The notes beneath the pieces were generated by a model that saw only the letters and a list, made by a program, of their open reading frames with translations, ran no database searches and was not told the DNA's origin. The position numbers and the translations under genes were made by a program. Positions 4,233-63,167 of a stretch of 64,000 nucleotides of DNA are shown piece by piece (position 1 is the stretch's first letter; the number at the start of each line of letters is the position of its first letter). The DNA is taken from the NCBI GenBank assembly GCA_037444445.1, contig JBBIMK010000007.1:4592-68591 (forward strand), in the 5' to 3' direction. The stretch is from a bacterium (GTDB lineage: Bacteria; UBP7; UBA6624; JBBIMK01).

Positions 4233-4529
4233 ATGTTTGGTTTTGAAAGCGAACGCGGATGGCAACGACGCATCGCCCAGGAAGTGGTAGAATCTCTTGA
4301 AAGTGAAGAAGAGCCTTCGGAGGCTTTAATTGAAGAAGTCACTGCCCATTTCATTGAAGAGCACTACGACCTGGGAGAGATGGATGAGGACGTGCATGAC
4401 CGCTTGCTTGAAAACATCCAGAAAATTGTGGAACAGGTTCAGGAAAAATTGATAGAAGAGGGTCATCTCTCCTCTCCACCCCGGGAGGAAGAAGTAGAAA
4501 ATTGGTGGGAAGGTGGAGAAGAAGTTTAA
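4233..4529 (+). CDS. hypothetical highly acidic small protein
   Basis: 98-aa ORF rich in Glu/Asp in the intergenic space between glmS and the pilus operon. It overlaps the pilQ stop convergently by 4 nt. No recognisable domain. Confidence 0.4.
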   Translation: MFGFESERGWQRRIAQEVVESLESEEEPSEALIEEVTAHFIEEHYDLGEMDEDVHDRLLENIQKIVEQVQEKLIEEGHLSSPPREEEVENWWEGGEEV

Positions 4530-5920
4530 AGGATTTGAACTGATGGAGTGATAAGAATGACGATTTCTTTTTTCTGTTTAATGCGAGTTTTTTGCTGAAA
4601 GAGTAGCCCGATGCCGGGTATGTCTCCCAGAAGAGGAGTTTTTCTCGTGCTTTTGGTATCACGGGATTGGAGCAAACCTGCAATTACAATTGTGTCTCCA
4701 CTCTTCACGCGAACGATGGTAGATGTGCCGCGGCTACTCAGTTTGGGGGCTGTGATTTTCACAGATTGAACCGTTCCGAAGTCCTCAAATCCGATGATGT
4801 CCGTTACCAGCGGAACTACATGGAGAATCACGGTGTCATCCTCCGCAACTCTCGGAGTCAAGCCCAAAAGGATACCTGCCTGCACCTGGCTCACAGTGAT
4901 GGAAATGGTCGGGAAGCCGGAGATGCCCGTGATCGTCTGAGTGATATTAGAGATAAAAGGAGTCACATCCCCCATCGTCACCAGAGCCGTCTGTCCGTTT
5001 ATTACAGAAAGGCGTGGAGAAGCCAGAACATTCACATCTCCCTGAGTTTGTAAAGCCCTCAGGACATTATTCAAGCCCTGTTGGGAATCGGTGGGAAAGT
5101 GAATGGTATTTAATGTGAGGGTGGTGCCTTCTGCGGGAGCCAACTGCTGCTTAAAGGTTACCTGCGCATTCCCTGCTGAGGGTCCAAAAAGTCGCGAGAA
5201 ATCAATCCCAAAACTGGTGGATTTATCCAGAGTGACCTCTGTCACTTTCACTTCCAGGGAGACCTGTTTCCTGAGGATGTTTTCTAATTCTTTCAGCCAG
5301 GCTTCAACCCGTTCAATAGGGGTGCGATAGTCCGTGACGATAACAGTTCCACTCATCCGGTCCACCGAGATTTTGCCATCTGAGGAAAGGAGTCCTTCCA
5401 GGGTTTTCTGGATTTGTTCCCAGAGGTCACTGTTCGGGATATTGGTTCTGAGGGTAAAAGCGCCACTGATCTGGCCACCGCCGGCTCCCGCACCAGCTGC
5501 ACCCCCCCCGGCGGCGCCACCGGCACCTCCTCCTGCCAGGCCACCGGCAAGACCCCCCAGCACATTTCCCCCTACATTACTTTCTGCGGTTAGTTTCGTA
5601 GGCACGAAATTCAAAGTGAACACCCGGGTTTCCAGCGCTCTCACTTTCAGGAATTTCCCGGCGATTTCGTAAGAATATCCAAGCGGAGCCAGCACGGCCG
5701 TCAGCACCTCATCTAATGTGGCTTCGCTCACATCCACATTGACCGAAATGGAGGGATCTACACCTTTTTCCGTCACGAGGATATAACCTGATTCCGTTGC
5801 AATAGAAGAAAGAATGGTTCCCAGTTGGGCCCCCCGAGCTCGCAGCGTATATCCCACCTCATCCGGATTGAGCGCCAGAACCAGAGCACCGAGCAGAATC
5901 ATGACGAAGATTTTTTTCAC
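4526..5920 (-). CDS. pilQ: type IV pilus secretin PilQ-like (secretin family outer membrane channel)
   Basis: Signal peptide. The C-terminal secretin signature is ...VKSGDTIVIAGLL...TPLLGDIPGIGLLFQ...IVILITPSVQ. It is the last gene of a pilMNOPQ-like operon and contains an unusual Gly/Ala-rich tract. Confidence 0.85.
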   Translation of the reverse strand: MKKIFVMILLGALVLALNPDEVGYTLRARGAQLGTILSSIATESGYILVTEKGVDPSISVNVDVSEATLDEVLTAVLAPLGYSYEIAGKFLKVRALETRVFTLNFVPTKLTAESNVGGNVLGGLAGGLAGGGAGGAAGGGAAGAGAGGGQISGAFTLRTNIPNSDLWEQIQKTLEGLLSSDGKISVDRMSGTVIVTDYRTPIERVEAWLKELENILRKQVSLEVKVTEVTLDKSTSFGIDFSRLFGPSAGNAQVTFKQQLAPAEGTTLTLNTIHFPTDSQQGLNNVLRALQTQGDVNVLASPRLSVINGQTALVTMGDVTPFISNITQTITGISGFPTISITVSQVQAGILLGLTPRVAEDDTVILHVVPLVTDIIGFEDFGTVQSVKITAPKLSSRGTSTIVRVKSGDTIVIAGLLQSRDTKSTRKTPLLGDIPGIGLLFQQKTRIKQKKEIVILITPSVQIL

Positions 5921-13794: not shown

Positions 13795-15747
13795 TTAAGT
13801 AGGGGAGAGAGAACGAACCACTTTCAGATAATAGCGGAGGAATAGAAAACCACTGACTGTCAGTAGCGCCCCTTGCGCCAGAAGAGTTTCCAGGGTCGGA
13901 TATAAGCCCAGCAAACCGATTGTGGGAAATCCTTTCAGGAATGTAACTCCTACCCATCCCATATCCTGCAACTCCTGTATACCCTTTCCAATGAAAGAAA
14001 AAGACAATGAATAGAGAAAAAGACTGGTCAGAGAAAAAAATAGACGGAGAGATAATTTGAGCATAAAACGATAAAAAAGAATACCCACAGAGAAAAGAAA
14101 GAGCAATCCGAGGAACAATCCAAACAAAAGGGAAGAAAAATTATGAGAATAAAAAAATAGCGACTGATAGAAGAGGATGGTTTCCAGGCCTTCGCGATAA
14201 ATGGCGAGGAAAGCCACAGAAGCCAGCGCCCACCGGCTCCCTTTTCCCAGTGCCAGCTGAACCTGATGCTGGATATACTTTTGCCAGTTCTGAGCCAGAG
14301 AGTGAGAAATTAACCAGAAGGAAACGGTAAAAAGAACGGCTGCTGCCAGAAGAAGAGTAAAACCTTCCAGCCCTTCCTGATAATTTTTCAGAGTCGCATA
14401 CACAGTTTGAGCCAGCAGGGCTGTCAGGCCGGTCAATACGAGCCCTGTCCCGGCTCCGACAAAAACCTCCCGATAAAATTTTTCCTGGCGGATTCGCTTT
14501 AAGTAAGCCAGAATGGCAACGAGAATTAAAAAGGCTTCTAAACCTTCACGAAAGAGGATCAGGAAAGATTGAAAAATTACCCACCGGGGAGACAGTTTCT
14601 CCTGCATCTGGGCGGCGAATTGCTCCAGTGCTGAAATCCACTTCTCGGCAGCAGAATGGAAAGAATTCGGCTCGTTCACTGCGGATTGAAGTTGATGAAA
14701 CAACGATTCTAATTTCCGGGTGGCAGACGGGTCAGGGCCTTTCAACAGGACTTCGTTTTGCTCAAATTCCATATAGAGGTCATGAAGCAGGGAAGAAGCC
14801 CCCTTGAAATCACCCTTGTCCACTTTCTGTTGAGCCTCCCTGAGAATTTTTATCCATTTTCCCCGGGAAGATAAGAGAATATCCTGAACAGAGGATGTGG
14901 ATGGCAAAAGAAAGGGGTGTAGAATTATCCATTGAGCCAGGACGACGCGTTGAGATTCAGGAACTTTCACTTCTGCAAGGCTCCGGGTAAGATTTTCAAT
15001 GCTTTTCGAGAGAAGGGCTTCGGGAGGGAAAGATTTCCAGCCCGGGGGCAAGAACCGTCCAGCCCATCGCCCTTTCTTCAGCATTGTTTTTTCTTCCGCC
15101 TCCATCAAAAAAAGAGAGAAGACCACAGACCACCGCTCCGTCTCTGATAGAGAGTCAGCGAACGAAGGCATAGGAGTCCCTGAGACGCCCTCCGATATGA
15201 GGGTAAATAATTGCATCGGACTCTTATTCTGAAGAAAAGAAAGGGAAAATAAATTCGGCGGATGGAAGTCGCCTATTTCCGAAGAAGGAGGCCCGTGACA
15301 GGATTTGCAATTATCCGCATAGACTCGTGCTCCCAGGGAAACACTCACTCCCGAAGGCAATCGCCATTCCAGAGGTCCCACATGCTTCTCAAGTAACCGT
15401 TGAAGGGAATTCACCGTATGCTCAACCTGTGGGATAGATGAGCGAGATTCTAATTCTTTTTGCAAGGTCTGAAATCCTTCCGAAAGAGAGGCATAAAAAG
15501 AAAGCTCAAGGGCTATCTCCCTGGCTTTTTGAAAAAATTCAAGGCTCTCCAGGTACTCCTCCTCCCGAGAATCTGGAGAGCCTTGAATGGAAAGGAAGTA
15601 TTCATCGCGAACCAACGAGAGGAGGCGTGCCGTGCGCTGAGCCAGATTCACATTGTCCCGGTTTTTCTCTCCAGCAACTTCTGAGATACCCGAAACGAGG
15701 AAAAGAGTGAGAATAGAGAAAACATAGAAAACTTGCCTTTTGCTCAC
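13795..15747 (-). CDS. cytochrome c - FTR1 fusion: periplasmic monoheme class I cytochrome c domain fused to FTR1/EfeU-type high-affinity iron permease
   Basis: Signal peptide. Single CxxCH (NCKSCHG) with a downstream Met ligand region (GTPMPSF). The C-terminal 7-TM domain carries two REGLE motifs (FREGLEAF and YREGLETI) diagnostic of FTR1 permeases. Confidence 0.8.
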   Translation of the reverse strand: MSKRQVFYVFSILTLFLVSGISEVAGEKNRDNVNLAQRTARLLSLVRDEYFLSIQGSPDSREEEYLESLEFFQKAREIALELSFYASLSEGFQTLQKELESRSSIPQVEHTVNSLQRLLEKHVGPLEWRLPSGVSVSLGARVYADNCKSCHGPPSSEIGDFHPPNLFSLSFLQNKSPMQLFTLISEGVSGTPMPSFADSLSETERWSVVFSLFLMEAEEKTMLKKGRWAGRFLPPGWKSFPPEALLSKSIENLTRSLAEVKVPESQRVVLAQWIILHPFLLPSTSSVQDILLSSRGKWIKILREAQQKVDKGDFKGASSLLHDLYMEFEQNEVLLKGPDPSATRKLESLFHQLQSAVNEPNSFHSAAEKWISALEQFAAQMQEKLSPRWVIFQSFLILFREGLEAFLILVAILAYLKRIRQEKFYREVFVGAGTGLVLTGLTALLAQTVYATLKNYQEGLEGFTLLLAAAVLFTVSFWLISHSLAQNWQKYIQHQVQLALGKGSRWALASVAFLAIYREGLETILFYQSLFFYSHNFSSLLFGLFLGLLFLFSVGILFYRFMLKLSLRLFFSLTSLFLYSLSFSFIGKGIQELQDMGWVGVTFLKGFPTIGLLGLYPTLETLLAQGALLTVSGFLFLRYYLKVVRSLSPT

Positions 15748-15888
15748 CTCTCCATCACCTTGAATAGTGTTTAATTTATAACAGCATCTGTCAAGTTAAC
15801 AGGAATGGTTATTAAATGACTGAATCCCGTATCAAGACAAGGATAAATTGCAGAGGAAGAAAAGTGAGATGAAGGAGATGAAGAAGAA

Positions 15889-15961
15889 TGCCGGGGCCCA
15901 GAATCGAACTGGGGACCCATGGATTTTCAGTCCACGGCTCTACCGACTGAGCTACCCCGGC
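15889..15961 (-). tRNA. tRNA-Phe (anticodon GAA)
   Basis: The reverse complement reads GCCGGGGTAGCTCAGTCGGTAGAGCCGTGGACTGAAAATCCATGGGTCCCCAGTTCGATTCTGGGCCCCGGCA. The cloverleaf has a 7-bp acceptor stem, D-arm GCTC/GAGC, an anticodon loop CTGAAAA and a T-loop TTCGATT. The 3' CCA is not encoded. Confidence 0.9.
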
Positions 15962-16034
15962 ATCGGTTTGCTACACTCTATTGTAGTGTGGAATCTGAAA
16001 AACTTCAAGCCACAATGGGGTGCCCATTGCAAGT

Positions 16035-16847
16035 TCAGACGAATTCAAGGGGACACATTTCAAGAGTGGACAGGAGGGGGCGGTTCTGTTCCGCTCTCCT
16101 CAATATTTCCACCGCTTTAGAGAGAGGAATTTGAAGATGATTGCATACTTCATCCACCGTGCGCTGTCTTTCATAAACTTCAAACAGAAGAGCATCCAGA
16201 GCCGAGTAGCGAAGCCCGATGGTTTTTTCATCTTCTTGCCCGGAAATGAGGCCCTGGGATGGAGGTTTGACAATAATTCGCCGGGGAACACCCAGATAGG
16301 AAGCCAGTTGAAGCACCTGGGTTTTATATAAATTTCCGAATGGAAAAATATCGGCCGCAGCATCGCCGAATTTGATTCCATAGCCCAGCAGGAAATCCGT
16401 CTTGGTTAAACTTCCTAACACGAGGTAGTTTTGCGCCTCGGCATGGAAATAAAGCAATGCGGCACGGATTCGTGCTTTTAAGAATTCGGAGCCTGTACGC
16501 AGATGGTCAAGTGAAAACTGCGTAGGGGACTTTTTTGTAAAAGCATAAATCAGGTCGGAAATGGGAACGATAGTTAGAGGAATAGCCACCAAGCTGGCGA
16601 CTTCTTCTGCGTTCAGAATATCACCTTCAGAGGTAACTCCCTCTTCGGGCATCATCAGAAGACTCAAGGCCTGTGAAAAAGCCTTCCTGGCAATCAGCGC
16701 GAGGGCCGCAGAATCGATCCCTCCGGATAACGCCAGGGCAGCACCATACCGAGAAAGTTCAACCATACGAAGGCGAAGATAACGGATAATTCCTTCTCCA
16801 ATTCTTTGCATTTCCTCATCCGCTAATCGCAGTTCCCGTTTTTCCAT
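16035..16847 (-). CDS. nadE: NH3-dependent NAD+ synthetase
   Basis: PP-loop ATP pyrophosphatase motif SGGIDSA with the typical NadE N-terminal layout. 270 aa. Confidence 0.85.
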   Translation of the reverse strand: MEKRELRLADEEMQRIGEGIIRYLRLRMVELSRYGAALALSGGIDSAALALIARKAFSQALSLLMMPEEGVTSEGDILNAEEVASLVAIPLTIVPISDLIYAFTKKSPTQFSLDHLRTGSEFLKARIRAALLYFHAEAQNYLVLGSLTKTDFLLGYGIKFGDAAADIFPFGNLYKTQVLQLASYLGVPRRIIVKPPSQGLISGQEDEKTIGLRYSALDALLFEVYERQRTVDEVCNHLQIPLSKAVEILRRAEQNRPLLSTLEMCPLEFV

Positions 16848-17870: not shown

Positions 17871-20066
17871 CTACGAGGTAACCACCGTGTAAGAGTAGGC
17901 AGTATTATCAGCAATATCTGTCACTTTGAGTGTGATGGTATGCTCACCTTCGGAAATCCCGGTGATAGAGAATATGTAGGACTCCGACTTAGAATCCGGA
18001 ATTCCATCGGCAGGGAGAATCACTTTCCAGGAATCAGAATCCAAAGAATATTCAGCCCCATCTATGCGGCTCCAGGCATCAGAGACCCGAAAGGATATAA
18101 AGATTTTTGATTTCTCTGAGCGGGCTTTCAAGTCTGTAATGACAGGCGGAGAATTATCCAGGACGAAGGCATCACTGATAGATTCCCCTGTTAAGGCAAT
18201 GGGGTCCGGATTGGATGGGGCGTCAGAAGCCACCACTTTCACAAAATAGGTTCCATCTGGAAGGGTTGTAGTATCCCAATTAAAACGGGAGGTAACAAGT
18301 TTATCCTTTAATAATTTCCAGCGACTTTCCGTATTGAGGCGATAATAAAGCGTATAAGTCATCTTATCTCCGTTCGGGTCTGAGGCTCTCCAGGTGATAA
18401 CCTGAAGACCCTTCTGGGTGGGACGAGGAGGGGGTGGACCCGGGGGAGGCATTTCCGTTTCGCCCCCAAATACCTGCTGAACTGCAGAAGTCATAAGGGC
18501 CTCCATGTCTGCTCTTCCCGGAGGCTGGGCGGCCTGCTTCGCCGCCTGAGTGGGTGATACAATCTGCACAGAGCTGACGCTCGGAGGTAAGTTTCGTTGT
18601 AAATAAGAGAAGGCGAATTTATGCACCTCCGGACTTCTGGAGCCGTCTGACGACAGAATCACTTTCCACTGGAGATAACGAGCGGAAGCACTCTGGATTT
18701 TATCGTCCTTTGCAGGCTTCCATTCACCCCAGGTGCTTTCCGGCTTGTCCGTATTCCCGGTGCGAGTATAAAATTCAGCGCGGGCTCCGGCAGGTAAAGC
18801 AACCTCTTTCTCCACGGCACCCCAGTCGGAAAGGATGCCGGCATCAAAAACCTCTGAAATATAAAACCCTTCGGACTGGCGTTTACCGGTTAGCCGATAT
18901 ACTTTCCCAAGATTGCTGGTGAGGACGAAATAAGTTCCCGAAGTATCCGGCAAAAGTTCCGTGATTTGCTCTTCGTCTAAATCCGATTCAAGAGTTTCTT
19001 TACCTTCGGTAGAAATGAAATACAGGAAGCCTTGTTTTCCCGTTCCAACAAGGAATCCGGAGGGGGAAGACGGAGCCAAAGCATACAGGTCATCCGACGA
19101 AGTTTCCCAGAGAGTTTGCCCGATACCCTCGTAAGTAATTTTTACAATGCCAGACTTTCTGGGACCTGCAGGCACAGGAGGAAGTGTGGGTGCTTCCTCC
19201 ATTTGCTCCGTTATTTCCTGAACAGTAGAAGCGAGATTAGAAAAATCGCCCTGCATGAATTGCTGGGCGAGGCTCGCTATGTCAGGCATTTGTGCGACTT
19301 TCCCTGCTGGAGCCTTCATCTTCGGAGCTGCCGAACCACCCATCACATAGAGAGCCTCCGGTGTCAACAGAATTTTCAGCACTTCCTGGTAGGGGGTGTC
19401 AAAAAGAGCGAAAGGGCGCCCATCAGCCGTAATCCGATATACCCAGCCGTTGTTCGCAGTGCCCACATAAACTTCACCCTTATTTCTAACAGCCAGAGAA
19501 CGGAGATGAGACTCATCGCTCTCAAAGACTGTTTCTGCTTGATTTTGCTTCTTCACTCTATAGAGTTTGCCTTTTTCATCTCCCGTCGCCACCCAGAGGG
19601 CCCCTTCTTCATCCAGTGCCAGAGCCCAGATATATTTTTCTGGCGGGTCGAAATAAACTTCACTTTTCTCCGCCGAAGGAATCCAGTAGACTTTCCCATC
19701 TGGCGAAGTGGCCGCAAAAATCTCGCCTTTCCTTCCCCCTATAGCAAGAGCATGGACCTCTGGCTCCTCGGCATCAAAATAGACCGAGGTGTCGCCCTGA
19801 GGGGAAATCCGAAACACTTTCCCCTCGTTGCCGGTGCCCACATAAAGATTCCCCGCAGAATCTTTGACAGCCGTCCATACATACGGGGCCTCCAGGTCAG
19901 CCAGTTTTTCCAGTGATGGGGCTAAACCCAGAATCCCTTGTGAAGAAATGGATACACCCTCCACTTTGCCTTTCTTGAAATCGGCATACGAGGTGTAGAC
20001 CTTATAATTCGGTGAGGCTGATACAAGCACTACACCAATGAGCCAGAGTCCAATGGTCTTTTTCAC
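17871..20066 (-). CDS. secreted beta-propeller repeat protein with C-terminal Ig/FN3-like domains
   Basis: Signal peptide. Repeated YVGT.../VWVAT.../VYVGT... blades (Reg_prop/PQQ-like pattern). C-terminal beta-sandwich-like region. ATGA overlap with the upstream peptidase gene. Confidence 0.6.
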   Translation of the reverse strand: MKKTIGLWLIGVVLVSASPNYKVYTSYADFKKGKVEGVSISSQGILGLAPSLEKLADLEAPYVWTAVKDSAGNLYVGTGNEGKVFRISPQGDTSVYFDAEEPEVHALAIGGRKGEIFAATSPDGKVYWIPSAEKSEVYFDPPEKYIWALALDEEGALWVATGDEKGKLYRVKKQNQAETVFESDESHLRSLAVRNKGEVYVGTANNGWVYRITADGRPFALFDTPYQEVLKILLTPEALYVMGGSAAPKMKAPAGKVAQMPDIASLAQQFMQGDFSNLASTVQEITEQMEEAPTLPPVPAGPRKSGIVKITYEGIGQTLWETSSDDLYALAPSSPSGFLVGTGKQGFLYFISTEGKETLESDLDEEQITELLPDTSGTYFVLTSNLGKVYRLTGKRQSEGFYISEVFDAGILSDWGAVEKEVALPAGARAEFYTRTGNTDKPESTWGEWKPAKDDKIQSASARYLQWKVILSSDGSRSPEVHKFAFSYLQRNLPPSVSSVQIVSPTQAAKQAAQPPGRADMEALMTSAVQQVFGGETEMPPPGPPPPRPTQKGLQVITWRASDPNGDKMTYTLYYRLNTESRWKLLKDKLVTSRFNWDTTTLPDGTYFVKVVASDAPSNPDPIALTGESISDAFVLDNSPPVITDLKARSEKSKIFISFRVSDAWSRIDGAEYSLDSDSWKVILPADGIPDSKSESYIFSITGISEGEHTITLKVTDIADNTAYSYTVVTS

Positions 20067-21934
20067 TTCATTTCCTCCTTTTCTATTTGAACTGAAAGCA
20101 TTTCTTTCCCTGTTATTTCAAAACGGAGTTTCTCGGAATTTTCTGAAACAATTTTTCTTTGATAACGGAAGGAATCTTTAGGAACTCGGGGAGATTCCAG
20201 TACACTGGAAATGGAGGGTGGAAGAGAAGGGAAGTCTTTTCCGTGGATGTAGAGCCCTCCTTCAGGCTGTTCCAGAAAAACATAAAGTCGATTGCTCATT
20301 CTCTTTTCCTTCAATAGTCGTAAAACATCTTCAAAAGAATACGGGGTAGTAGGGGAAAGGGATATATCCTCCAGAGTAGCCTCTTGACCTCCGCCGATGA
20401 AGATTTGCATCGTGCCTTCTTTGATGGATTCAGGAACTTTCACAGTAAGAGTATGACGCTCCTCATCCTTCATCCAGGGCTTTAGAATATAAAAAATCTG
20501 AAGGGATTCACCGGGTGCTACCGTTGTTTTATCGGTCCAGGCCCTCTTCAAAACGGCAGAATTTCTACCCCGAACAACTTCTAACTGAATCTCTACTTTT
20601 TCCAGATTTGGAAACACAAATCCATTGTCAAAAATGGATGCGAGGATAGAAGTCAGGTCAAATGCTGCATTGGCCAGAGCGGAATCTCCGCCAAAAAGAA
20701 ACTCAAAAAATCCTGGCATCCCCCCATAAAAATTTTCAAAGGGAAGGATGCCATAATTCTGGATATAAATCCGAGCAGACACTTGAAGACTGGTTCCGCT
20801 TCCAGATAACCGAGCAGATTCCATAGCGTCCGCTATCACTGAGAAGGTCAGAAAACTCATAAAGGGATTGATAGATTTATCCTGAGCGATACGATACGAA
20901 AAGGATTTCTTCTCTCCCCCGGGAAACTGAATATCTATCTGAAGCGGATACATATTCACCGGTGCACCCAGAATACCAAAGATACCTGTGGTTCTATCCT
21001 GTCGCAAGTTCCCTACGATTTTTCCGGTATTAGCCATTTTGGTAGAAGCGGAAAGGAGGGAGAGGGTGTGAACGATGGAAGCCTGAGCCATGGGAAGGTT
21101 GATGGGTCCCTGGTCGAAGAAGGGATGCCCGAAAGCCAGCACGGAGTTATCCTTCCGATAGGTAACCGTTCCAGTGGCATCAAAATTCAGGTCGCCGTCC
21201 ACCAGAACAGCGGAAATGGGGGAACCTGGTTCCAGGGGAGGGCCCGTATCTTCTGCCCTGCCTCCACCTGGTGTCATAACCAGCCCCGCTTCCTCAAAAA
21301 CGGGTTGTATCCGATTAAACACCGCCGGAGAAATACCCGAAACAGAGAGAAGCAGGGGGATGTTCTCCATCCCTTCTGGATAACGAGCAGATAATTTTGA
21401 CCAGCGCTGCGTAATTTCCTCCCAGAAGGCTTGCTTCTGACCAGGAATTCCAAGGGCAGACCAGAAAGCAGAAGCAGAAAACTGGGGAACCGGCTCTTCC
21501 TCATCCCGAATAGATTCTTTACCAGGAATTTCCAACATCTCTTCTATGGGGGTGACGCCAGCAATGGGTTCTTTTTGAAAACTTCCAAAGCGATAAGCCA
21601 GCGCACCCACCAGTTTGTCCTGTATATATACAGGACTCCCGCTCATTCCCGCCACGACACCCGTGAATTGTGCCTTTTCTCCGAGAAGACGAATGAGGAT
21701 CACACTCCGCTTAGAAGAAAAATTCTTTAGCACACCCACAACTTCCACAGGAAATTCTTCAATTTTATCTCCCTGAAAAACCGTTTTAGCATATCCACGC
21801 ATCCCTTCTTTTATCTCGGATAAGGCAAGTATTTGAGGTTCTGCCTTGAGAATAGAAGCGGAAAAAAGGAAAATCCCCACAACTCCACTCCAGGCCACTC
21901 GTTTTACCATCCAAAATCCCTCCTGCTCCTTCAT
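20063..21934 (-). CDS. secreted serine peptidase-like protein (GMSGSP motif; SpoIVB/S55-like, tentative)
   Basis: Signal peptide. GVVAGMSGSPVY resembles the S55/SpoIVB catalytic serine motif. The overall architecture is non-canonical, so the function is tentative. Confidence 0.45.
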   Translation of the reverse strand: MKEQEGFWMVKRVAWSGVVGIFLFSASILKAEPQILALSEIKEGMRGYAKTVFQGDKIEEFPVEVVGVLKNFSSKRSVILIRLLGEKAQFTGVVAGMSGSPVYIQDKLVGALAYRFGSFQKEPIAGVTPIEEMLEIPGKESIRDEEEPVPQFSASAFWSALGIPGQKQAFWEEITQRWSKLSARYPEGMENIPLLLSVSGISPAVFNRIQPVFEEAGLVMTPGGGRAEDTGPPLEPGSPISAVLVDGDLNFDATGTVTYRKDNSVLAFGHPFFDQGPINLPMAQASIVHTLSLLSASTKMANTGKIVGNLRQDRTTGIFGILGAPVNMYPLQIDIQFPGGEKKSFSYRIAQDKSINPFMSFLTFSVIADAMESARLSGSGTSLQVSARIYIQNYGILPFENFYGGMPGFFEFLFGGDSALANAAFDLTSILASIFDNGFVFPNLEKVEIQLEVVRGRNSAVLKRAWTDKTTVAPGESLQIFYILKPWMKDEERHTLTVKVPESIKEGTMQIFIGGGQEATLEDISLSPTTPYSFEDVLRLLKEKRMSNRLYVFLEQPEGGLYIHGKDFPSLPPSISSVLESPRVPKDSFRYQRKIVSENSEKLRFEITGKEMLSVQIEKEEMK

Positions 21935-23905: not shown

Positions 23906-24889
23906 TCACAAGGGTTTCTGTTGCAAAAGGCGAACAGATTTTTTTGTAAGCACTCTCCCCTGTGGAGTGCGCCTCAACAATCCCATTTTAATCAGAAAAG
24001 GCTCGTACACATCCACAAGAGTGTCCCTCTCTTCTCCGAGGACAGCGGAAAGCGTATCCAGACCTGCCGGACCTCCTTGAAAATCGTGAGCCATAACCCA
24101 TAACAATTTTCTGTCCATAGCATCCAGGCCATATTCATCGATTTCCAGAGCAGTCAGCGCTCTTTCAGTAATCTTTTTCTCCACTTTTCCATTCCCTTCT
24201 ACCTTTGCGAAATCGGCGACTCGTTTGAAAAGGCGTAGAGCCACGCGAGGGGTTCCTCTACCCCGAATGGCTATCATACGGATAGCCTCTGAAGTTGTGG
24301 GCACTTGCAGGACGGTAGCATAGTTCTGCAGGATTTCTTCTATCTCCTTCACGGAGTAAAAATCCAGCTTAAATATAAATCCGAAACGATTTCGCAGAGG
24401 GGAAGAAAGGAGTCCCGGACGAGTCGTGGCTCCCACCAGGGTAAAGAAAGGGAGGGAGATTTTCAAGATTCGGGCGCTCGCTCCCTTACCCATCACGATG
24501 TTCAGAGAGAAATTTTCCATGGCGGGATAAAGAGATTCCTCCACAGCAGCAGGGATCCGATGGATTTCATCAATGAAAAAGGTGTCCCGAAAATTCAACT
24601 CTGAAAAAAGAGCCGCCAGGTCTGCCACCCGGGTTAGCACAGGCCCAGAGGTGGCATAAAAATTTCCTCCCTGCTCCCGAGCCAGAACGCTGGCTAAGGT
24701 GGATTTTCCCATTCCCGGGGGCCCATAAAATAGCACATGGTCCAAAGATGTGTTACTTTTCCGGGAAGCCATCAGGGCGATGTGAAGAATCTGCTTCACT
24801 TTTTCTTGCCCGACAAATTCGTCGAATGTAGTGGGGCGGTACACAAAAGTTTCTTCTGCATTCCGACGAGGGTCTACCAGGCGATTCAT
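23906..24889 (-). CDS. ruvB: Holliday junction branch migration DNA helicase RuvB
   Basis: Walker A GPPGMGKSTLA, AAA+ RuvB core and a C-terminal winged helix. 327 aa. Confidence 0.95.
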   Translation of the reverse strand: MNRLVDPRRNAEETFVYRPTTFDEFVGQEKVKQILHIALMASRKSNTSLDHVLFYGPPGMGKSTLASVLAREQGGNFYATSGPVLTRVADLAALFSELNFRDTFFIDEIHRIPAAVEESLYPAMENFSLNIVMGKGASARILKISLPFFTLVGATTRPGLLSSPLRNRFGFIFKLDFYSVKEIEEILQNYATVLQVPTTSEAIRMIAIRGRGTPRVALRLFKRVADFAKVEGNGKVEKKITERALTALEIDEYGLDAMDRKLLWVMAHDFQGGPAGLDTLSAVLGEERDTLVDVYEPFLIKMGLLRRTPQGRVLTKKSVRLLQQKPL

Positions 24890-25461
24890 CTGTGTTTCAA
24901 AGCCTCACGAATCAGCACTTCAAGGGATTTAATAGGGGGGACACGAGAACGGACTCGGCGCAATCTCTGCTGGGCTTCTCTGCGTGTAAAGCCGAGGGAG
25001 AGTAAAGCCTGGAGGGCATCTGCCCACAGATTGCTTAATCCCTTTTGCCAGCCTCCCCATTTTCCTTCCAGAACTTCCTCCCTTACTTCTGCGATGATTC
25101 GTCGGGCTGTTTTCACGCCGATTCCAGAAATAGATTGTAACGATTCTTCATCACCATCCGCAATGCTCTGCAAAAGGGAAAGGAGATTTCCATTCAACAA
25201 GCGGAAAGCCATTTTTTTCCCCACGCCCTGGATGCGGGTGAGCCGTCGGAAAAGGTCCCGCTCCCTCTCCGTTTGAAATCCATACAACGACAGGCCCGTG
25301 TCATCCAGAATAAATTCTGTAAAAAAATGCGTTTTCTTCCCCTTTTTCAATGTCTGGATGTAACTCGCGGGAGAAAATACCGTAAGAGTAACCGGACCGA
25401 CCTCCAAATCCACCCGATCTTTATCCCATCTGAGAATTTTTCCTCTAATCTCTGTGAGCAT
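24886..25461 (-). CDS. ruvA: Holliday junction DNA helicase RuvA
   Basis: OB fold, HhH motifs (GIGVKTARRII) and a C-terminal domain. ATGA overlap with ruvB. Confidence 0.9.
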   Translation of the reverse strand: MLTEIRGKILRWDKDRVDLEVGPVTLTVFSPASYIQTLKKGKKTHFFTEFILDDTGLSLYGFQTERERDLFRRLTRIQGVGKKMAFRLLNGNLLSLLQSIADGDEESLQSISGIGVKTARRIIAEVREEVLEGKWGGWQKGLSNLWADALQALLSLGFTRREAQQRLRRVRSRVPPIKSLEVLIREALKHR

Positions 25462-25933
25462 AAGCGTATTCCTTCAAGCCACAAGCCAAAGCCACCCCAA
25501 TAGCATCCAGGGCATCTACATGCGAATCCTGAATTTCAAACTGGCGGAAAAGGGCATGTCGGATGTCTTGTTTGGAGGAATTGCCGTAGCCGGTGAGGGC
25601 GAGTTTCACTGTTTTGGGGGAGAAAAAACGAATCGGCAAATGGCTTTGCACCGCAGCCAGAAGAACCACCCCTATCACACAACCCATCCTTAAACTCTGT
25701 TGGGAGGAACGAGGATACCCTCCCCATTCCACAGCCACCAGATGGGGAGAATGCAGCTGGACCCAGGTTCTTGCTATCTCGTGCACTTCCATCAAGGTTT
25801 GTTCCAGCGTTTGAGATTGCAGTTCGTGGGTTTGCCATCGCAGAATATCCCAGGGATGGGTGGGAGAATGAACCTTTTCAATTACGGAGAGTCCGATGCG
25901 ATGAATGCCCGGGTCAACTCCCAGAATTCGCAT
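25445..25933 (-). CDS. ruvC: crossover junction endodeoxyribonuclease RuvC
   Basis: MRILGVDPG... RNase H-like fold. 162 aa. Immediately downstream of the yebC-like gene. Confidence 0.9.
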   Translation of the reverse strand: MRILGVDPGIHRIGLSVIEKVHSPTHPWDILRWQTHELQSQTLEQTLMEVHEIARTWVQLHSPHLVAVEWGGYPRSSQQSLRMGCVIGVVLLAAVQSHLPIRFFSPKTVKLALTGYGNSSKQDIRHALFRQFEIQDSHVDALDAIGVALACGLKEYAYAHRD

Positions 25934-25934
25934 C

Positions 25935-26720
25935 TCAAATCAACCTGGGAAGCCCTAAAAACTCTTCCATTTTGAAGCCTGAAATATCGTAGTTGGCATA
26001 GACTTCTTGAACATCATCCAGGTCTTCCAAGACAGAAATCAGTCGGAGAATTTTCTCAGCGGTTTCATCCTCCTCCACTCGGACCAGTTGTCGGGGCACG
26101 AAAGTGATTTCTGCGCGCTCAAAAGTGATGGGCAGTTTAGAGAGTTCCGCTTTGATATGGGTCAAATCTTTCGGGTCACAAATGACTTCAAAGACTCCAT
26201 CCTCTATGGTGACATCCTGGGCACCCACATCGGCGGCGATGTCAAAAAACTCCAGGTTGGGCACGGTGCCGATATTGCCCACCAACAGCCCCTTTTTATC
26301 AAACATCCATGCCACACTACCTTTTTCCGCCAGGTTACCACCATATTTAGAGAACAGATGTTTCAAGTCTCCTGAGGTCCGATTCCGATTATCCGTGACG
26401 GTGCGAATCAAAATGGCAATACCCGCCGGGCCATATCCTTCATAGAAAACCTCCTCAAAATTTGCCCCCTCTTCTCCACCCAATCCCCGGTTGATGGCGC
26501 GTTCTACCGTATCCGAGGGCATATTGATTTCACGGGCTTTATCAACGGCTTTCCGAAGGCGAGGGTTTGCCTCCAGGTCGCTACCGCCCGCTTTCGCCGC
26601 CACGGTCAATTCCCGAATAATCTTCGCAAACTGCTGCCCTTTACGGGCATCCATCGCCGCTTTCCGATGCTTGATATTTGCCCATTTAGAGTGTCCGGAC
26701 ATCGTTCCATCCACCTCCAT
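25935..26720 (-). CDS. YebC/PmpR family DNA-binding transcriptional regulator
   Basis: MSGHSKWANIKHRKAAMDARKG... is the canonical YebC N-terminus. Classic yebC-ruvCAB linkage. Confidence 0.9.
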   Translation of the reverse strand: MEVDGTMSGHSKWANIKHRKAAMDARKGQQFAKIIRELTVAAKAGGSDLEANPRLRKAVDKAREINMPSDTVERAINRGLGGEEGANFEEVFYEGYGPAGIAILIRTVTDNRNRTSGDLKHLFSKYGGNLAEKGSVAWMFDKKGLLVGNIGTVPNLEFFDIAADVGAQDVTIEDGVFEVICDPKDLTHIKAELSKLPITFERAEITFVPRQLVRVEEDETAEKILRLISVLEDLDDVQEVYANYDISGFKMEEFLGLPRLI

Positions 26721-26730
26721 ACAAATTGTA

Positions 26731-28098
26731 TCAGAAAATCTTACGAATTCCGACTATGGGGCGAGACTTGTTCCCTCGCTCCACTCCAGCAAAGAGAGAA
26801 AATTTTTTCTCCACCTCTAAGGCGAACAGAATTTGATATTGGAGCGAAATATCCTGCTGACGATACCACCACACATTCGCCTCTACGAAGAGATTCGGAT
26901 TTGACCACGAAAATTCCAGGGAGGGACGGTGCCTGCGTGTTCCCACTCCCAGAGACACATCCCGGTGGCCCCCATAGCCAAAATACCACAGCAGGTCATT
27001 GGCTCTGCCCCAATCTTCTCCACCCAGTTTCATATACCAGCCCGATTCCGGCTGTTCAACTCGCAAAAAGGTAAGTGTGGAAACCTGACCTTCAGTCCCG
27101 GGTGAGCGTTTGAACCAAGCACGCACATCCGCACTCCCCTGCACCGATGAGATTTCCTCCGCAACCCCGCGAGCCTTTTTGGTAACCGACTCAATATTTT
27201 TCACTGAGGATTCAACGGATTGACGGAAAGATTCTGCCCCCAGGGTGTCAGAGAGTTTTTTTAAGTTTTCCGATAGAACTTTCAAATTTTCTATGGTCGT
27301 TTTCAGGGTGTTCTGAAATTCCTCGCTCCCGGCAATTTTTTCAAAATTTTTAGAAATAGTTTCCAGAGAAGCGGCGGAGTTTTCTACCCTCTTCAGGATA
27401 GCCTGGGCTTGCTCACGAATTTCTTTCACGACCCCCCTCGTATCAGTGGAAATCCCTTCCACATTCTGCAAAATGCGATTTAATCTGCTATTCACCTGAT
27501 TCACGCTGGAGCGAACCTGCTGGATTAACTCCGATAATTGCTGTGAAGAGTAGGTGATAGAGGGCTGGATATCCTGCAAAATGGCTTGAACTCTGTAAAT
27601 GACAGAATTCAGGCTGTCCAGCGTTTGATTCACGGAGGCTGAAACATTTTTCACTTCCACCGATAACTCTGCCACTAAGGTTTCAAAACTGGGGAGGGCG
27701 ATCCCGATATTCTCCGCCGTTCCCTCCGCAGGGATAAACTGATTCTTGGGTTCCTGAGAAGACACCATCAGGGTAGGCTCACCAAAAAAAGTCGGAGTCA
27801 ATATAGAAAAAGTGGATTTGACAGGTATTCCCTTTCCGCGGTCTATCCGTAAAATGACCCTGGGCATAAATTTTTCTTTCGTGTCCCATTCCACCCCATC
27901 CACCCTCCCCACCGGGGCCCCATCCAGATATACATTGGTTCCAGGAAGAATTCTGCTCACATCGGTAAAATAAACATAAATCCGATACCCTCGCATGGTT
28001 TGAATCCTCCAATAACCCAGATAAACCATAATGGAAATAAACACCACGAAAAATGTGATAATAAACAGGCCAATCTTCAGTTCCGTCGTCCACCTCAT
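26731..28098 (-). CDS. mlaD: MCE (MlaD-like) family protein with long coiled-coil and C-terminal beta-rich extension ending in Phe
   Basis: N-terminal TM helix plus an MCE domain (YFTDVSRILPGTNVYLDGAPVGRV). There is a ~200 aa helical region and a C-terminal amphipathic-strand segment ending ...GIRKIF. Operon with MlaE/MlaF. Confidence 0.75.
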   Translation of the reverse strand: MRWTTELKIGLFIITFFVVFISIMVYLGYWRIQTMRGYRIYVYFTDVSRILPGTNVYLDGAPVGRVDGVEWDTKEKFMPRVILRIDRGKGIPVKSTFSILTPTFFGEPTLMVSSQEPKNQFIPAEGTAENIGIALPSFETLVAELSVEVKNVSASVNQTLDSLNSVIYRVQAILQDIQPSITYSSQQLSELIQQVRSSVNQVNSRLNRILQNVEGISTDTRGVVKEIREQAQAILKRVENSAASLETISKNFEKIAGSEEFQNTLKTTIENLKVLSENLKKLSDTLGAESFRQSVESSVKNIESVTKKARGVAEEISSVQGSADVRAWFKRSPGTEGQVSTLTFLRVEQPESGWYMKLGGEDWGRANDLLWYFGYGGHRDVSLGVGTRRHRPSLEFSWSNPNLFVEANVWWYRQQDISLQYQILFALEVEKKFSLFAGVERGNKSRPIVGIRKIF

Positions 28099-28892
28099 AG
28101 ATGAGCCTCCTCGGTGATTTTTAATGGTCCAATTGGATTTCCATCCAGAAACTGTTTCAAAGCAATCACATCCACTCTATCTTTCAGTGGAAACTCACCT
28201 TTTTGAATCTGGAAGAAAGCATCCCGGTTCTGAATGGTGAGAATCTCACCGCTTTCCACCAGAGCAATATGGTCACCGATATTTTGAACCAGGTGCAAGT
28301 CATGAGTGGCAATCACCGTTAAATCCACGCGTTCTTTTACCCGGTCAATCAACTGACAGATTAAAGAAGAGGTGATGGGGTCTAATCCACCGGTAGGCTC
28401 ATCAAACAGAATTACACGAGGCTCTGCGGCCAGGGCGCGAGCCAGTCCCACACGCCGTTTCATTCCGCCGGAGAGTTCAGAAGGGAGCAAAGAAAGAATA
28501 TCTCCATTCAACCCCACTGCTTCCAGGAGCCCCTGAACACGCGGCTTCCACTCTTTCATCCGGATGTGCTTTCTCTTCATCGGAAAAACTAAATTTTCCC
28601 AGACGCTCATAGAATCAAAGAGGGCACCTTCCTGGAAAACGATTCCCACCTGGCTGAAAAATTTTTTTCGTTCCCCCGGCCGTAAGGCAGTCACTTCTAT
28701 TCCACCACACTGAATGCTCCCCTGCACGGGACGGATTAATCCGGCTATGGCTTTCAGGAGTGTGGTCTTCCCGCTTCCACTTCTCCCCAGTAATATAAAA
28801 ACTTCCCCTTGCTCCATCTCCAGATGATTGACCCGGAGAACCAATTTGTTCCGATACCCAACAATCACATCCTGAATTGTGCAATATATCAT
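28095..28892 (-). CDS. mlaF: ABC transporter ATP-binding protein, MlaF-like
   Basis: Walker A LLGRSGSGKTTLLK. ABC signature LSGGMKRRVGLARAL. Walker B ILFDEP. Confidence 0.85.
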   Translation of the reverse strand: MIYCTIQDVIVGYRNKLVLRVNHLEMEQGEVFILLGRSGSGKTTLLKAIAGLIRPVQGSIQCGGIEVTALRPGERKKFFSQVGIVFQEGALFDSMSVWENLVFPMKRKHIRMKEWKPRVQGLLEAVGLNGDILSLLPSELSGGMKRRVGLARALAAEPRVILFDEPTGGLDPITSSLICQLIDRVKERVDLTVIATHDLHLVQNIGDHIALVESGEILTIQNRDAFFQIQKGEFPLKDRVDVIALKQFLDGNPIGPLKITEEAHL

Positions 28893-29680
28893 GGTTGTCG
28901 GAAGATAAAAATAGTGAGTAGAATATTGGAAATGAGAATATAAATCATAGAAGTGACCACTGCTTCAGTGACCTTATGCCCCAGGTCCACTGCACCTTCT
29001 CTCACCGCCAGTCCTTTATAGGAAGAAACAACGGCGATGATGGCTCCAAAAACGGTCGCTTTCCACAGGCCTTCACGAAGGTAGTGTTGCCGAAAAATCG
29101 TCTGAATGGAAAAAGTATAACTGGTCCAGGTCAAGTTCACTGCCGTTTGAGCGGGATAATATGCCAGGATAATTGCCACATACACCGAGATGGCCACCAC
29201 CATGGGCGACATAAGGATAGAAGCCACAAATCTCGGAAATATGAGATACTGGAAAGGGTCGACTCCGAGGGCTTTCAGGGCATCCACCTGTTCCGTAATT
29301 TTCATGGAACCCAGCTGAGAAGTGATGCTGGCGCCCACTCTACCTGATAGGATTAAGCCAATAATCACAGGTCCCAGGTCCCTTGCCATGACGGCTGCCA
29401 CTGCTCCTCCGATGAGATATTTTCCTGCCCCACCTACATCTGCCACTTGCTGGGCAAGCAAATAACTGGTGGTCATAGCCGCCGTGGTAGAAGCAATGAC
29501 AGAAATCGGCAGGGATTCTATCCCCCAAAAAGCCAGTTGTCGTGCAAAAGTATCCCACGCTAAATAATACGGTGGAAATATGCCTTCCACAAACACCAGC
29601 ACTGCTTCCCCCACTTCCTCCAATTTCCGAAGGAAATAATTCAACACATCCGAACCCACTTGCTCTATGGCCTGCCACAT
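28889..29680 (-). CDS. mlaE: ABC transporter permease, MlaE-like
   Basis: 263 aa polytopic membrane protein with MlaE-like topology. It is the first gene of the operon and has an ATGA overlap with mlaF. Confidence 0.85.
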   Translation of the reverse strand: MWQAIEQVGSDVLNYFLRKLEEVGEAVLVFVEGIFPPYYLAWDTFARQLAFWGIESLPISVIASTTAAMTTSYLLAQQVADVGGAGKYLIGGAVAAVMARDLGPVIIGLILSGRVGASITSQLGSMKITEQVDALKALGVDPFQYLIFPRFVASILMSPMVVAISVYVAIILAYYPAQTAVNLTWTSYTFSIQTIFRQHYLREGLWKATVFGAIIAVVSSYKGLAVREGAVDLGHKVTEAVVTSMIYILISNILLTIFIFRQP

Positions 29681-46014: not shown

Positions 46015-46329
46015 TCAAGTTATCAGCAAATAAGTGCTCAGGGTGCCCTCGTGCTGTCCGCCGGAATAATGCTGTAAAGTGACTACATACTGACCCTTCG
46101 CTAATGCAGGAGGTTTACAGGTGACGGTGAGCGTGAACCCATCCTGAGTGCAGGTTCCGATGCTGACTGCGTCCTGTCCGTCAAATCGGATGCCGGTGAT
46201 GGGACACACCTTCTCATCCGTATTGAGGGAAACGGTGATTTTCAGCGGATTTGAGATGCTCCTGCTACCCCCATAAATGGCGGGAGCCCCATCCAGCGCC
46301 GGGCATATAGATACAGTTTGATAGCCCAT
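46015..46329 (-). CDS. small Cys/His-containing hypothetical protein, paralog B of tandem pair
   Basis: 104 aa with a GAGGAGG RBS. About 60% identical to the upstream paralog. Shared motifs CPALDGA, NPLKIT(V/I)SLN, VCPIT, AVSIGxCTQ and HYSGGQHEGT. Confidence 0.6.
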   Translation of the reverse strand: MGYQTVSICPALDGAPAIYGGSRSISNPLKITVSLNTDEKVCPITGIRFDGQDAVSIGTCTQDGFTLTVTCKPPALAKGQYVVTLQHYSGGQHEGTLSTYLLIT

Positions 46330-46469: not shown

Positions 46470-46787
46470 TTACACCCCGGGAGTATAGGGGGTGCTTATA
46501 GTTCCCTCGTGCTGTCCGCCGGAATAATGAGCCACAGAAACAGCACACCCCTGACCGGGGGTCAACGGGGGAGGTTTGCAGAAGACGGTAACCTTGAGCC
46601 CGCTCTGGGTGCAATTTCCAATGCTAACTGCAGAGACCCCATTAAACTGGATGCAGGTGATAGGACACACGTTCTCAGAAGCATTGAGGGAAATGGTAAT
46701 TTTTAAGGGATTACCGGAGTCTCCACTAAAACCGTATTGAGCAGAGGCGCCATCCAGAGCTGGACACTTATTTCCCGGACAGGCCAT
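46470..46787 (-). CDS. small Cys/His-containing hypothetical protein, paralog A of tandem pair
   Basis: 105 aa with an AAAGGAGGTG RBS. Shares the same motif set as paralog B. It has no signal peptide and its second half is IPT/TIG-like. Confidence 0.6.
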   Translation of the reverse strand: MACPGNKCPALDGASAQYGFSGDSGNPLKITISLNASENVCPITCIQFNGVSAVSIGNCTQSGLKVTVFCKPPPLTPGQGCAVSVAHYSGGQHEGTISTPYTPGV

Positions 46788-52578: not shown

Positions 52579-53235
52579 TTAGGTGCCTGAACTGAAGATG
52601 TGAATCATCGTGGAAGGTGTATCGGCAGGGTCCGTTCTCCAGTCAGTGCCACCCGGGTCACCATCGTCAGCGGTGGAGCACGGGTCGTCCACGGTATCCA
52701 ATTGGATGACAGCGCCTGTGGTCGGTGTGCCCTGTTGGGGTGCCGACTCGCCGTCTACAGCGATGTCCGTCTCGTTGGCTTCTCTGGCAGGCACAGCACC
52801 GAAATAGACGAAACGGTCATTAGCGATACCGTCCCCATTCCGGTCGGCGTTGGAATCATCCCCGCCCCCGCTGTCAGTGTCATCCAGCATAAAGCACCCT
52901 CCATATTGGTCCACATAGCGAGGAGTGGCGTTGCGTCTCGGAGGCTTATCCATATAGGGCCCCTTCCAGTTCGTCGCGCCCAGTGGGTTGGTGAGCAACT
53001 GTTGAACGGCATTATCCGTCCCGTCTGTCGGGTCCACTGGCCAGGCGCCCACATCAGCGAAATATTCCAGAGTGCCTTTCCGGAGGTCCTCCGCCTCGGA
53101 GAGATTCCGGGACACACGCCCCTTTCGGATTTGCCCGAACACCTGGGGCAGAATGACAGCGGCCAGAATGGCGATAATCGCCACCACCGCAATTAACTCG
53201 ATGAGAGTGAAGCCCTTCTTCACATTTCTCATCAC
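52579..53235 (-). CDS. type IV pilin / pseudopilin with prepilin N-terminal methylation motif and Asp-rich C-terminal region
   Basis: KKGFTLIELIAVVAIIAILAAVILP is the class III signal peptide and alpha1 helix. The C-terminal half is acidic with DRNGDGIANDRF (DxDGDGxxD Ca-binding-like) and contains two Cys. AAAGGAGGTG RBS and a TATAAT -10 upstream. Confidence 0.8.
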   Translation of the reverse strand: MMRNVKKGFTLIELIAVVAIIAILAAVILPQVFGQIRKGRVSRNLSEAEDLRKGTLEYFADVGAWPVDPTDGTDNAVQQLLTNPLGATNWKGPYMDKPPRRNATPRYVDQYGGCFMLDDTDSGGGDDSNADRNGDGIANDRFVYFGAVPAREANETDIAVDGESAPQQGTPTTGAVIQLDTVDDPCSTADDGDPGGTDWRTDPADTPSTMIHIFSSGT

Positions 53236-59395: not shown

Positions 59396-59431
59396 CTATC
59401 CCTCCTTTATCATTTTGGTTTCTTTGAAGTT

Positions 59432-60649: not shown

Positions 60650-60661
60650 CCTCTATCCCTC

Positions 60662-62281: not shown

Positions 62282-62291
62282 TCTTCACCCC

Positions 62292-63167
62292 CTAATTCAG
62301 AAACCGCTTATCTCTGTTGGAACCATGAATGCTCTTGTGGCATCGGGTGCAACGCATGAGTTCTGTGCGGGAGTTTTTATGAAATAGAAAAGCATCTGCA
62401 TGGCACTGCAGGCAGAGAGCAGGTTGACGAAGCGCCAGCAAATCCTGATTGGGCGAACCATGCGAGAGATGGCAGGCGGAACAGGATTCCAGAACCGGCT
62501 TGTGCTCATAAACGAAAGGACCCATTTTTTCCTGATGACATTTCACGCAGGGTGTCGTTCGGGAAGGCTGACGCTGGAGCATCTTCAGGCTCTCGTGAGG
62601 ATTATGACAGTCGGAGCAGGATACCTTTTTCTCACGAATCGGATGCCGGGATGGCATCTGAATTTGCGCCTTTAACGATGGATGGCAGGAAAGGCAGAGC
62701 GGGGTTTCCTCCTCCTTGAGAAGCCCTTTCTTTCCACGATGGGGGTCGTGACAGGATGTGCAGGAGGTCCCCCGGCGAGAATGCTGGGTTAATTTCCAGT
62801 CCTTCCGTTCATGGCAGGAAGTGCAAGCCACAGCAATCTCATCGGGTGAAGTGGTCCGAAAATTCCTAATCTCCGTTCCATCCGCTTTCTCTATGTGAAG
62901 AGAGCCAGGACCGTGGCACGCCTCACATCCGCTTTTCCTGGAGGGTTCCTCTTTTTCAAATAAAATCCGGTGCGCCGTGGCTTTGAACCCCACTTCTTTC
63001 CCCTCGTGGCAAGTGATGCACTGGCTGAACCCCACATACTCCTTTTTAGCAGGTTCTTCCGCAAGAACAGGGAATGACCACCAGAGGAAAAAAACAGCGG
63101 TCATCCACAGGAAGGATGTCCGCTTCACGCCCCCTGTTGCGGTGTCCCTTTTTTCACTCATCTTCAT
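62292..63167 (-). CDS. periplasmic decaheme c-type cytochrome, MtrA/PioA/MtoA-like
   Basis: Signal peptide. Ten CxxCH motifs in 291 aa: CITCH, CEACH, 2x CTSCH, CLSCH, CSDCH, CVKCH, CSACH, CLQCH and CTRCH. This matches MtrA-family heme density and size. First gene of the operon. Confidence 0.85.
   Translation of the reverse strand: MKMSEKRDTATGGVKRTSFLWMTAVFFLWWSFPVLAEEPAKKEYVGFSQCITCHEGKEVGFKATAHRILFEKEEPSRKSGCEACHGPGSLHIEKADGTEIRNFRTTSPDEIAVACTSCHERKDWKLTQHSRRGTSCTSCHDPHRGKKGLLKEEETPLCLSCHPSLKAQIQMPSRHPIREKKVSCSDCHNPHESLKMLQRQPSRTTPCVKCHQEKMGPFVYEHKPVLESCSACHLSHGSPNQDLLALRQPALCLQCHADAFLFHKNSRTELMRCTRCHKSIHGSNRDKRFLN

Follow-up and report, generated by a model that had tools for sequence, protein, structure and literature searches.

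The 64-kb window analyzed here (64,000 nucleotides of the bacterial contig JBBIMK010000007.1) carries an mlaE-mlaF-mlaD gene cluster on the minus strand. Its unusually long mlaD gene is the subject of this study. An earlier note on this DNA had described a 455-residue MlaD-like gene of an mlaEFD operon, ending in IVGIRKIF, and we found the open reading frame (ORF) at exactly the coordinates it gave. The gene occupies positions 26731..28098 of the minus strand, starts with ATG and encodes 455 residues followed by a stop codon, with the C-terminus ...RPIVGIRKIF. The start codon is backed by the N-terminal pattern MR[WYI]...E..IG, which is conserved among relatives. The first gene of the cluster, mlaE (28889..29680, minus strand, 263 residues), encodes the permease subunit of an MlaFE-type ATP-binding cassette (ABC) transporter. 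It matches the Pfam family MlaE with an E-value of 1.3e-55 over 211 of 212 profile positions, and scores 168.7 bits against TIGR00056 (1.9e-49), under the curated cut-off of 212.2. The second, an mlaF-like gene (28095..28892, minus strand, 265 residues), encodes an ABC ATPase (Pfam ABC_tran, 4.7e-33), and its match to the NCBIfam MlaF model PRK11831 (1.4e-42) is likewise under the equivalog cut-off. Neighboring genes overlap by 4 bp at both junctions, and mlaD is the third and last gene. The identical gene order is found in the related loci L001-L005.

The N-terminal part of the protein resembles known MlaD proteins. A transmembrane anchor is located at residues 5-26 (28021..28086, minus strand), where AlphaFold2 predicts a helix with a predicted local distance difference test (pLDDT) score of 84-96. 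The only strongly hydrophobic 19-residue segment of the protein is found here, starting at residue 9 (Kyte-Doolittle hydropathy 2.77), and the anchor aligns with the transmembrane segment of the solved MlaD chains 7ch8 and 6zy2. It is followed by a single MCE (MlaD) domain, residues 36-134 (27697..27993, minus strand). Pfam PF02470 matches residues 36-110 with 6.2e-12 and 46 bits, above the gathering cut-off of 25.1. In the AlphaFold2 model the strands of this domain span residues 37-134, with block-mean pLDDT values of 73-95 and mostly above 90. Consistent with this, three solved MlaD chains (7ch8, 6zy2 and 6xbd) could be aligned to residues 4-113, with E-values of 6e-8 to 4e-6.

An amphipathic helical region, residues 138-317 (27148..27687, minus strand), connects the MCE domain to the C-terminal domain and is predicted to span the periplasm as a ‘needle’. 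In the AlphaFold2 model of the full protein, calculated with an alignment of 50 sequences, the entire region is helical with low pLDDT values of 38-64. In the query as well as in the family profile, its hydrophobicity repeats every 3.6 residues, a periodicity that none of 1000 shuffled sequences reached. The segment between the MCE domain and the C-terminal domain is 186 residues long, close to the family median of 188 (range 156-231). The MCE domain and the helical region also align with proteins of other MCE systems. TIGR00996, the actinobacterial Mce model, aligns over residues 16-289 (4.4e-24, 85.2 bits, cut-off 140.5), and PA3213 of Pseudomonas aeruginosa (PDB 13hr) aligns over residues 13-288. 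A BLASTP alignment with the MlaD of Megasphaera has an E-value of 3e-20 and about 25% identity over residues 1-312. Faint Pfam labels on the relatives (Helical_needle, Dcst2, DUF948 and FAP206), together with many weak coiled-coil matches, were rejected as composition noise of the helical region. These data agree with the earlier description of an MCE domain followed by a long helical region. They also support the proposal of an inner membrane anchor that carries a periplasm-spanning stalk similar to that of PqiB, the stalk being of typical length for the family.

The C-terminal domain, residues 320-455 (26734..27141, minus strand), is predicted to form a β-barrel with ten strands. In the model of the full protein these residues are confident (pLDDT 81-96). 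Residues 313-455 modeled alone with a 43-sequence alignment gave a pLDDT of 94.1, a predicted template modeling score of 0.84 and again ten strands, which are joined by turns of 2-7 residues. The monomer prediction suggested by the earlier note was thus confident for the anchor, the MCE domain and the barrel, and not for the helical part. The closed-barrel fold fits OpcA with a deviation of 1.9 Å over 135 residues. Compared to the ten-stranded barrels OpcA (2vdf) and OmpT (7xw0), the domain has 7-9% sequence identity and no sequence-family relationship was detected. Its loops of 2-7 residues also differ from the long surface loops that serve the adhesin and protease functions of those proteins. 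No significant match was found when the barrel profile was compared with PDB sequences, and all 11 matches below the threshold are outer membrane barrels. Hydrophobicity with a period of two residues in the barrel region was reached by 6 of 1000 shuffled sequences. The alternating strands noticed earlier are therefore real, although the segment is 136 residues long and not about 100.

The distribution of residues in the strands is also informative. Aromatic residues make up 16% of the barrel domain and 3% of the helical part, and they are clustered near the ends of the strands. Across the family, one face of the strands is 73% hydrophobic and the other 23%. The positions with the strongest conservation lie on the polar face, namely Gly359, Gly374, Gly386 and Gly450 as well as Arg, Gly and Asp columns. 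This arrangement matches that of narrow outer membrane barrels, which have a conserved lumen of small or polar residues, a variable apolar exterior and aromatic girdles. We infer that the hydrophobic face points outward. The last strand, PIVGIRKIF (26734..26760, minus strand), resembles the β-signal and contains Gly450, which is invariant in the alignments of relatives (50 of 50 and 43 of 43), and the terminal Phe455. The family consensus for this strand is G-[IVL]-x-x-x-F. The last residue is Phe in 35 and Tyr in 4 of 66 complete members of the module; a terminal Phe is therefore frequent, but not universal, in the family. The C-terminal aromatic residue that had been pointed out as typical of substrates of the β-barrel assembly machinery (BAM) is present here.

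A soluble β-sandwich or a disordered tail, which the earlier note had named as outcomes that would speak against a membrane barrel, was rejected on the basis of the pLDDT of 94 and the closed-barrel fit. A related possibility is that the domain is a soluble periplasmic lipid-binding barrel of the calycin, nitrobindin or fatty acid-binding protein type, an MlaC-like cup that touches the outer membrane and is not embedded in it. Such a cup would also be a closed barrel. The nearest solved folds of the domain are outer membrane barrels and not soluble sandwiches, and we consider a soluble cup very unlikely.

The barrel is shared with many relatives. An exhaustive HMMER search of 1.84 billion representative sequences gave 1176 matches at E < 1e-3. 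Only three of them are below 1e-30, one fragment with 84% identity and two full-length proteins, P0004 and P0005, with 31-32% identity, indicating that the lineage of the window is very sparsely sampled. An independent metagenome contig carries the gene for a protein with 97% identity (P0001), its neighbors being in the same order, and both this copy and the 84% identical copy come from other metagenomes. An artefactual gene fusion was rejected, as the same 455-residue architecture is found in independent assemblies. A profile search of genome contigs with a 4-sequence alignment found no relative. With an iterated profile of residues 320-455, a module of about 115 residues was found at the extreme C-terminus of 97 of the 152 retrieved MCE relatives, and the objection that the extension is merely low-complexity sequence typical of the lineage does not hold. 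The motifs shared by the module are LG..D.G..N..NLQ.G, R.G...S..G.G.D, D.YDPN and the final G-[IVL]-x-x-x-F. Cluster look-up named three of its bearers, the MlaD proteins of Megasphaera hexanoica (Veillonellaceae), an Acidaminococcaceae bacterium and an uncultured Selenomonas, all of them Negativicutes.

To control for circularity, we built a profile of 61 mainstream barrels that contains no sequences of the window lineage. It matches the window MlaD over 114 of 132 profile positions with an E-value of 9.8e-8, which may be somewhat flattering because the 61 barrels were first gathered by iteration seeded with the query. Among 625 six-frame ORFs of the window, this MlaD is the only significant match. 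The sequence comparisons indicate that the window barrel is homologous to the barrel of MlaD in Negativicutes. No model in Pfam-A (2025 copy) or NCBIfam release 20 covers the barrel module, even in the relatives P0153, P0004 and P0035, which include the Megasphaera MlaD. The sole extra match of the Megasphaera protein is to TonB_dep_Rec_b-barrel, at a sub-threshold 5e-4. As no barrel model exists, such proteins are annotated only as ‘MlaD family’, and NCBI names the relatives ‘MlaD family protein’.

A protein of this design has been described experimentally. The MlaD of Veillonella parvula (419 residues) has a ten-stranded barrel at its C-terminus, preceded by a transmembrane domain, an MCE domain and a helix of about 150 residues (Grasekamp et al., Nat Commun 2023; PMC10665443). 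On fractionation, the barrel by itself was recovered with outer membrane markers, and the part comprising the transmembrane and MCE domains with the inner membrane (PMC10665443). Lipid-asymmetry phenotypes were seen in the mla mutants, and mutations in tamB suppress them (PMC10665443). Among MlaD homologues, 85% are long and about 10% have a predicted barrel (PMC10665443). The window protein has the structural and gene-context features of this class, an elongated MlaD with a C-terminal outer membrane β-barrel. Both have one transmembrane domain, one MCE domain, a helix of 150-190 residues and a ten-stranded C-terminal barrel. Both are encoded in an mlaEFD cluster with no mlaA, mlaC or mlaB nearby, and in both AlphaFold2 is confident at the two ends and unsure in the helix. 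They also differ. The proteins of Megasphaera, Selenomonas and Acidaminococcaceae served as proxies for the V. parvula sequence, and the window MlaD is only about 25% identical to that of Megasphaera (residues 1-312). Its barrel is a divergent, Trp-rich variant without several mainstream motifs. The host is not a Negativicute, and its mlaEFD genes are joined to a yebC-ruvCAB-queA cluster.

Canonical MlaD proteins of Escherichia coli and Acinetobacter baumannii (6zy2, 7ch8, 6xbd) have a homologous transmembrane anchor and MCE domain and the same MlaE and MlaF partners. Unlike the window protein, they are about 150-200 residues long and end in a short helix, and they need the soluble MlaC, the outer membrane lipoprotein MlaA and usually MlaB. 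The window protein scores 50.2 bits against TIGR04430, the MlaD equivalog model, far from the cut-off of 135. The earlier note had reported no mlaA or mlaC in the window. In agreement, no member of the MlaA, MlaC or STAS/MlaB families was found when 46 of the 64-kb window's 60 long ORFs were scanned with Pfam. Among the 14 long ORFs outside these scans, QueA, RuvB, RuvA and RuvC were named through an annotated homologous contig, and on inspection the remaining ones resembled housekeeping genes or short or spurious ORFs. The three families are also absent from the related loci L001-L005 (~17 kb). In the class of barrel-bearing MlaD, a genome without mlaA and mlaC is a trend of co-occurrence and no strict rule.

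Other genes in the window bear on the cell envelope. A secretin gene (PF00263, 1.1e-37) is located at 4526-5920 on the minus strand, and three genes without a Pfam match follow it in the segment 4526-8748. This position next to the secretin is the usual place of pilO, pilN and pilM. A prepilin-type protein is encoded at 52579-53235. The presence of a secretin indicates that the organism has an outer membrane, and that of Lgt indicates that it has lipoproteins. These genes point to a diderm, piliated organism.

Other MCE systems can be compared with the window protein. PA3213-PA3214 of P. aeruginosa (13hr) and PqiB-PqiC of E. coli are reported to be trans-envelope tunnels on an MlaEF-like ABC transporter (PMC13631591). 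PA3213 has one MCE domain and a long helical needle that spans about 20 nm. The needle was visualized by cryo-electron microscopy at low resolution, in a periplasmic subcomplex of about 230 Å (PMC13631591). In these systems a separate octameric ring of PqiC-like lipoproteins binds the C-terminal peptide of the MCE protein, whereas the barrel of the window protein is covalently fused. No lipoprotein gene is found in the window operon or in L001-L005, and the gene that follows mlaD is yebC. Since an adjacent PqiC-like lipoprotein gene is lacking, the window system was not assigned to the PA3213 type. Proteins of the multi-MCE PqiB/LetB type contain 3-7 tandem MCE domains and have PqiA or LetA as a partner. 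The window protein was rejected as a member, with its single MCE domain and its MlaE and MlaF partners; the PqiB model matches only the helical part, with 20 bits against a cut-off of 525. Mycobacterial Mce1 (8fed, 8fee and 8fef) likewise has a long helical needle in addition to an MCE domain. It is a heterohexamer of six different paralogues, Mce1A-F, each of which contributes one C-terminal strand to a small shared barrel (PMC10665443), and its envelope is a mycomembrane. The window cluster contains a single MCE gene compared to six paralogous ones, and its protein falls short of the actinobacterial Mce model (85.2 versus 140.5 bits).

Taken together, the structural analysis makes it likely that the window gene encodes an elongated, barrel-bearing MlaD of the V. 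parvula type, which would bridge the inner and outer membranes. The suggestion that the C-terminus contacts or inserts into the outer membrane is supported by the barrel model, by the outer membrane barrel folds nearest to it, by the homology to the Negativicutes barrel and by the outer membrane that the secretin indicates. A mechanism can be proposed by analogy with the V. parvula protein (PMC10665443) and the solved structures of MlaFEDB, PqiB, Mce1 and PA3213. Six copies of MlaD would be bound to an MlaE2F2 ABC transporter, with their MCE domains arranged in a ring. The helices of the six copies would build a hydrophobic tunnel of about 20 nm across the periplasm. BAM would insert each barrel into the outer membrane, with the terminal Gly-x-x-x-x-Phe strand as an aid. 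In the resulting fixed bridge, ATP hydrolysis would drive the movement of glycerophospholipids between the membranes, and the bridge would take the place that the MlaC shuttle and the MlaA lipoprotein have in Proteobacteria.

The same architecture could carry a cargo other than bulk glycerophospholipid. The system would then resemble Mce in importing or exporting another hydrophobic molecule, for example a fatty acid, a quinone or a sterol- or hopanoid-like lipid. In NCBIfam, TIGR00996 and not the MlaD equivalog matches the MCE domain and the helix best, with both scores under their cut-offs, and no MlaB partner is present. In addition, MCE systems are reported to carry diverse substrates (PMC13492129, PMC13631591). 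However, the permease is a clear MlaE (1.3e-55), and the neighboring yebC, ruvCAB and queA hint at no specialized lipid pathway. The only class member studied experimentally also shows phospholipid-asymmetry phenotypes with tamB suppression (PMC10665443). A cargo other than phospholipid therefore appears quite unlikely, and we retain phospholipid transport through the bridge as the preferred explanation.

A further possibility concerns the outer membrane end. A ten-stranded barrel is too narrow to conduct a lipid (PMC10665443). The barrel could then be a purely mechanical tether, with lipid entering the tunnel through a separate outer membrane partner. Most long MlaD proteins lack a full barrel and are presumably functional (PMC10665443), and a separate ring of lipoproteins is reported to connect PA3213 and PqiB to the outer membrane (PMC13631591). 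On the other hand, no candidate gene for such a partner is found in the window operon or in L001-L005, and the strong conservation of the lumen-face residues suggests more than passive anchoring. We give a purely mechanical role very little credence; it would in any case refine the bridge and not be a true alternative to it.

Besides the seeding of the mainstream barrel profile, several points weigh against the bridge. All evidence on the window protein is in silico, and outer membrane insertion, the hexamer and transport are inferred by analogy. The helical region, which would form the tunnel, is modeled at low confidence. A comparison by hhalign of the window lineage (3 sequences) with the Negativicutes barrels (7 sequences) was weak, with a probability of 10% and an E-value of 0.003, although the alignment is collinear to the final Phe; it was given no weight as support. 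The mainstream motifs missing from the window barrel include D-x-G..N..NLQ-G and YDPND. The authors who described the class note that lipid passage is difficult to square with a ring of six separate, narrow barrels (PMC10665443). Finally, the lack of mlaA and mlaC holds for the 64-kb window only.

The genomic neighborhood of the cluster is distinctive. The yebC gene begins 11 bp after mlaEFD and is followed by ruvC, ruvA, ruvB and queA. From mlaE to ruvB (23906-29680) the genes mlaE-mlaF-mlaD-yebC-ruvC-ruvA-ruvB all lie on the minus strand, and each overlaps the next or is separated from it by a very short gap. A larger gap precedes queA. Pairing of envelope-lipid genes with DNA-repair genes is unusual. 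The order mlaEFD-yebC-ruvCAB-queA is kept in ‘bacterium JZ-2024 1’ (GCA_054402635.1; L002/L003), the closest named relative of the host. No MCE gene is found beside ruvB at any of 80 named RuvB loci of other phyla, indicating that the mlaEFD-ruvCAB synteny is lineage-specific. Among the best 80 matches of the RuvB protein, identity to a species representative reaches 55% at most, and these matches are scattered over Acidobacteriota, Nitrospirota, Zixibacteria, Omnitrophota, Chloroflexota and others. One speculation, which we regard as unlikely, is that the window lineage carries a deep-branching subtype of barrel-bearing MlaD. Its Trp-rich barrel without the mainstream lumen motifs might then work differently, for example by lateral association into a composite lipid gate in the outer membrane, and the coupling to yebC-ruvCAB-queA might reflect lineage-specific regulation. 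Should this lineage branch close to the root of the diderms, it would also supply an independent data point for a trans-envelope MlaEFD system as the ancestral form.

Additional features are found elsewhere in the window. A 623-residue protein encoded at 20063-21934 (minus strand) has an N-terminus resembling a signal peptide and a SpoIVB-type Peptidase_S55 domain (1.7e-11). Members of the family are chiefly known for sporulation signaling in Firmicutes, and the host here is diderm and not recognizably a Firmicute. The adjoining gene (17871-20066, minus strand) encodes a 731-residue β-propeller protein, and the pair is kept in L001. Three multihaem c-type cytochromes with MtrC/MtrF-like domains and paired CXXCH motifs are encoded at 57971-63167 (minus strand). 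They flank a 539-residue signal-peptide protein without a Pfam match (60662-62281), with which they could form a porin-cytochrome conduit for extracellular electron transfer. Two small Cys-rich paralogues with 65% identity (E-value 1e-40) are arranged in tandem at 46015-46329 and 46470-46787 (minus strand); the first of them, which was scanned, has no Pfam match. A 650-residue fusion protein (13795-15747, minus strand) combines an FTR1 iron permease domain (4e-30) with a cbb3-type cytochrome c domain. The only tRNA gene in the window is tRNA-Phe (GAA) at 15888-15962 (minus strand), and the 90-residue ORF that overlaps it on the plus strand (15848-16120) is probably spurious.

The bridge design was already published in 2023 for V. 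parvula, and the window protein is a divergent further example of it. The questions it raises, namely the direction of transport, the passage of lipid through six narrow barrels and the stoichiometry, were also posed then, and none is new. Here the design of a phospholipid bridge in place of a shuttle was recovered independently, from raw sequence, and extended to a lineage far from the Negativicutes. The divergent barrel sequence helps to define which residues of the module are truly constrained, and a family model for the barrel could be started from the 43-sequence alignment (A3). The finding adds weight to the view that the MlaA/MlaC shuttle of E. coli is the exception.

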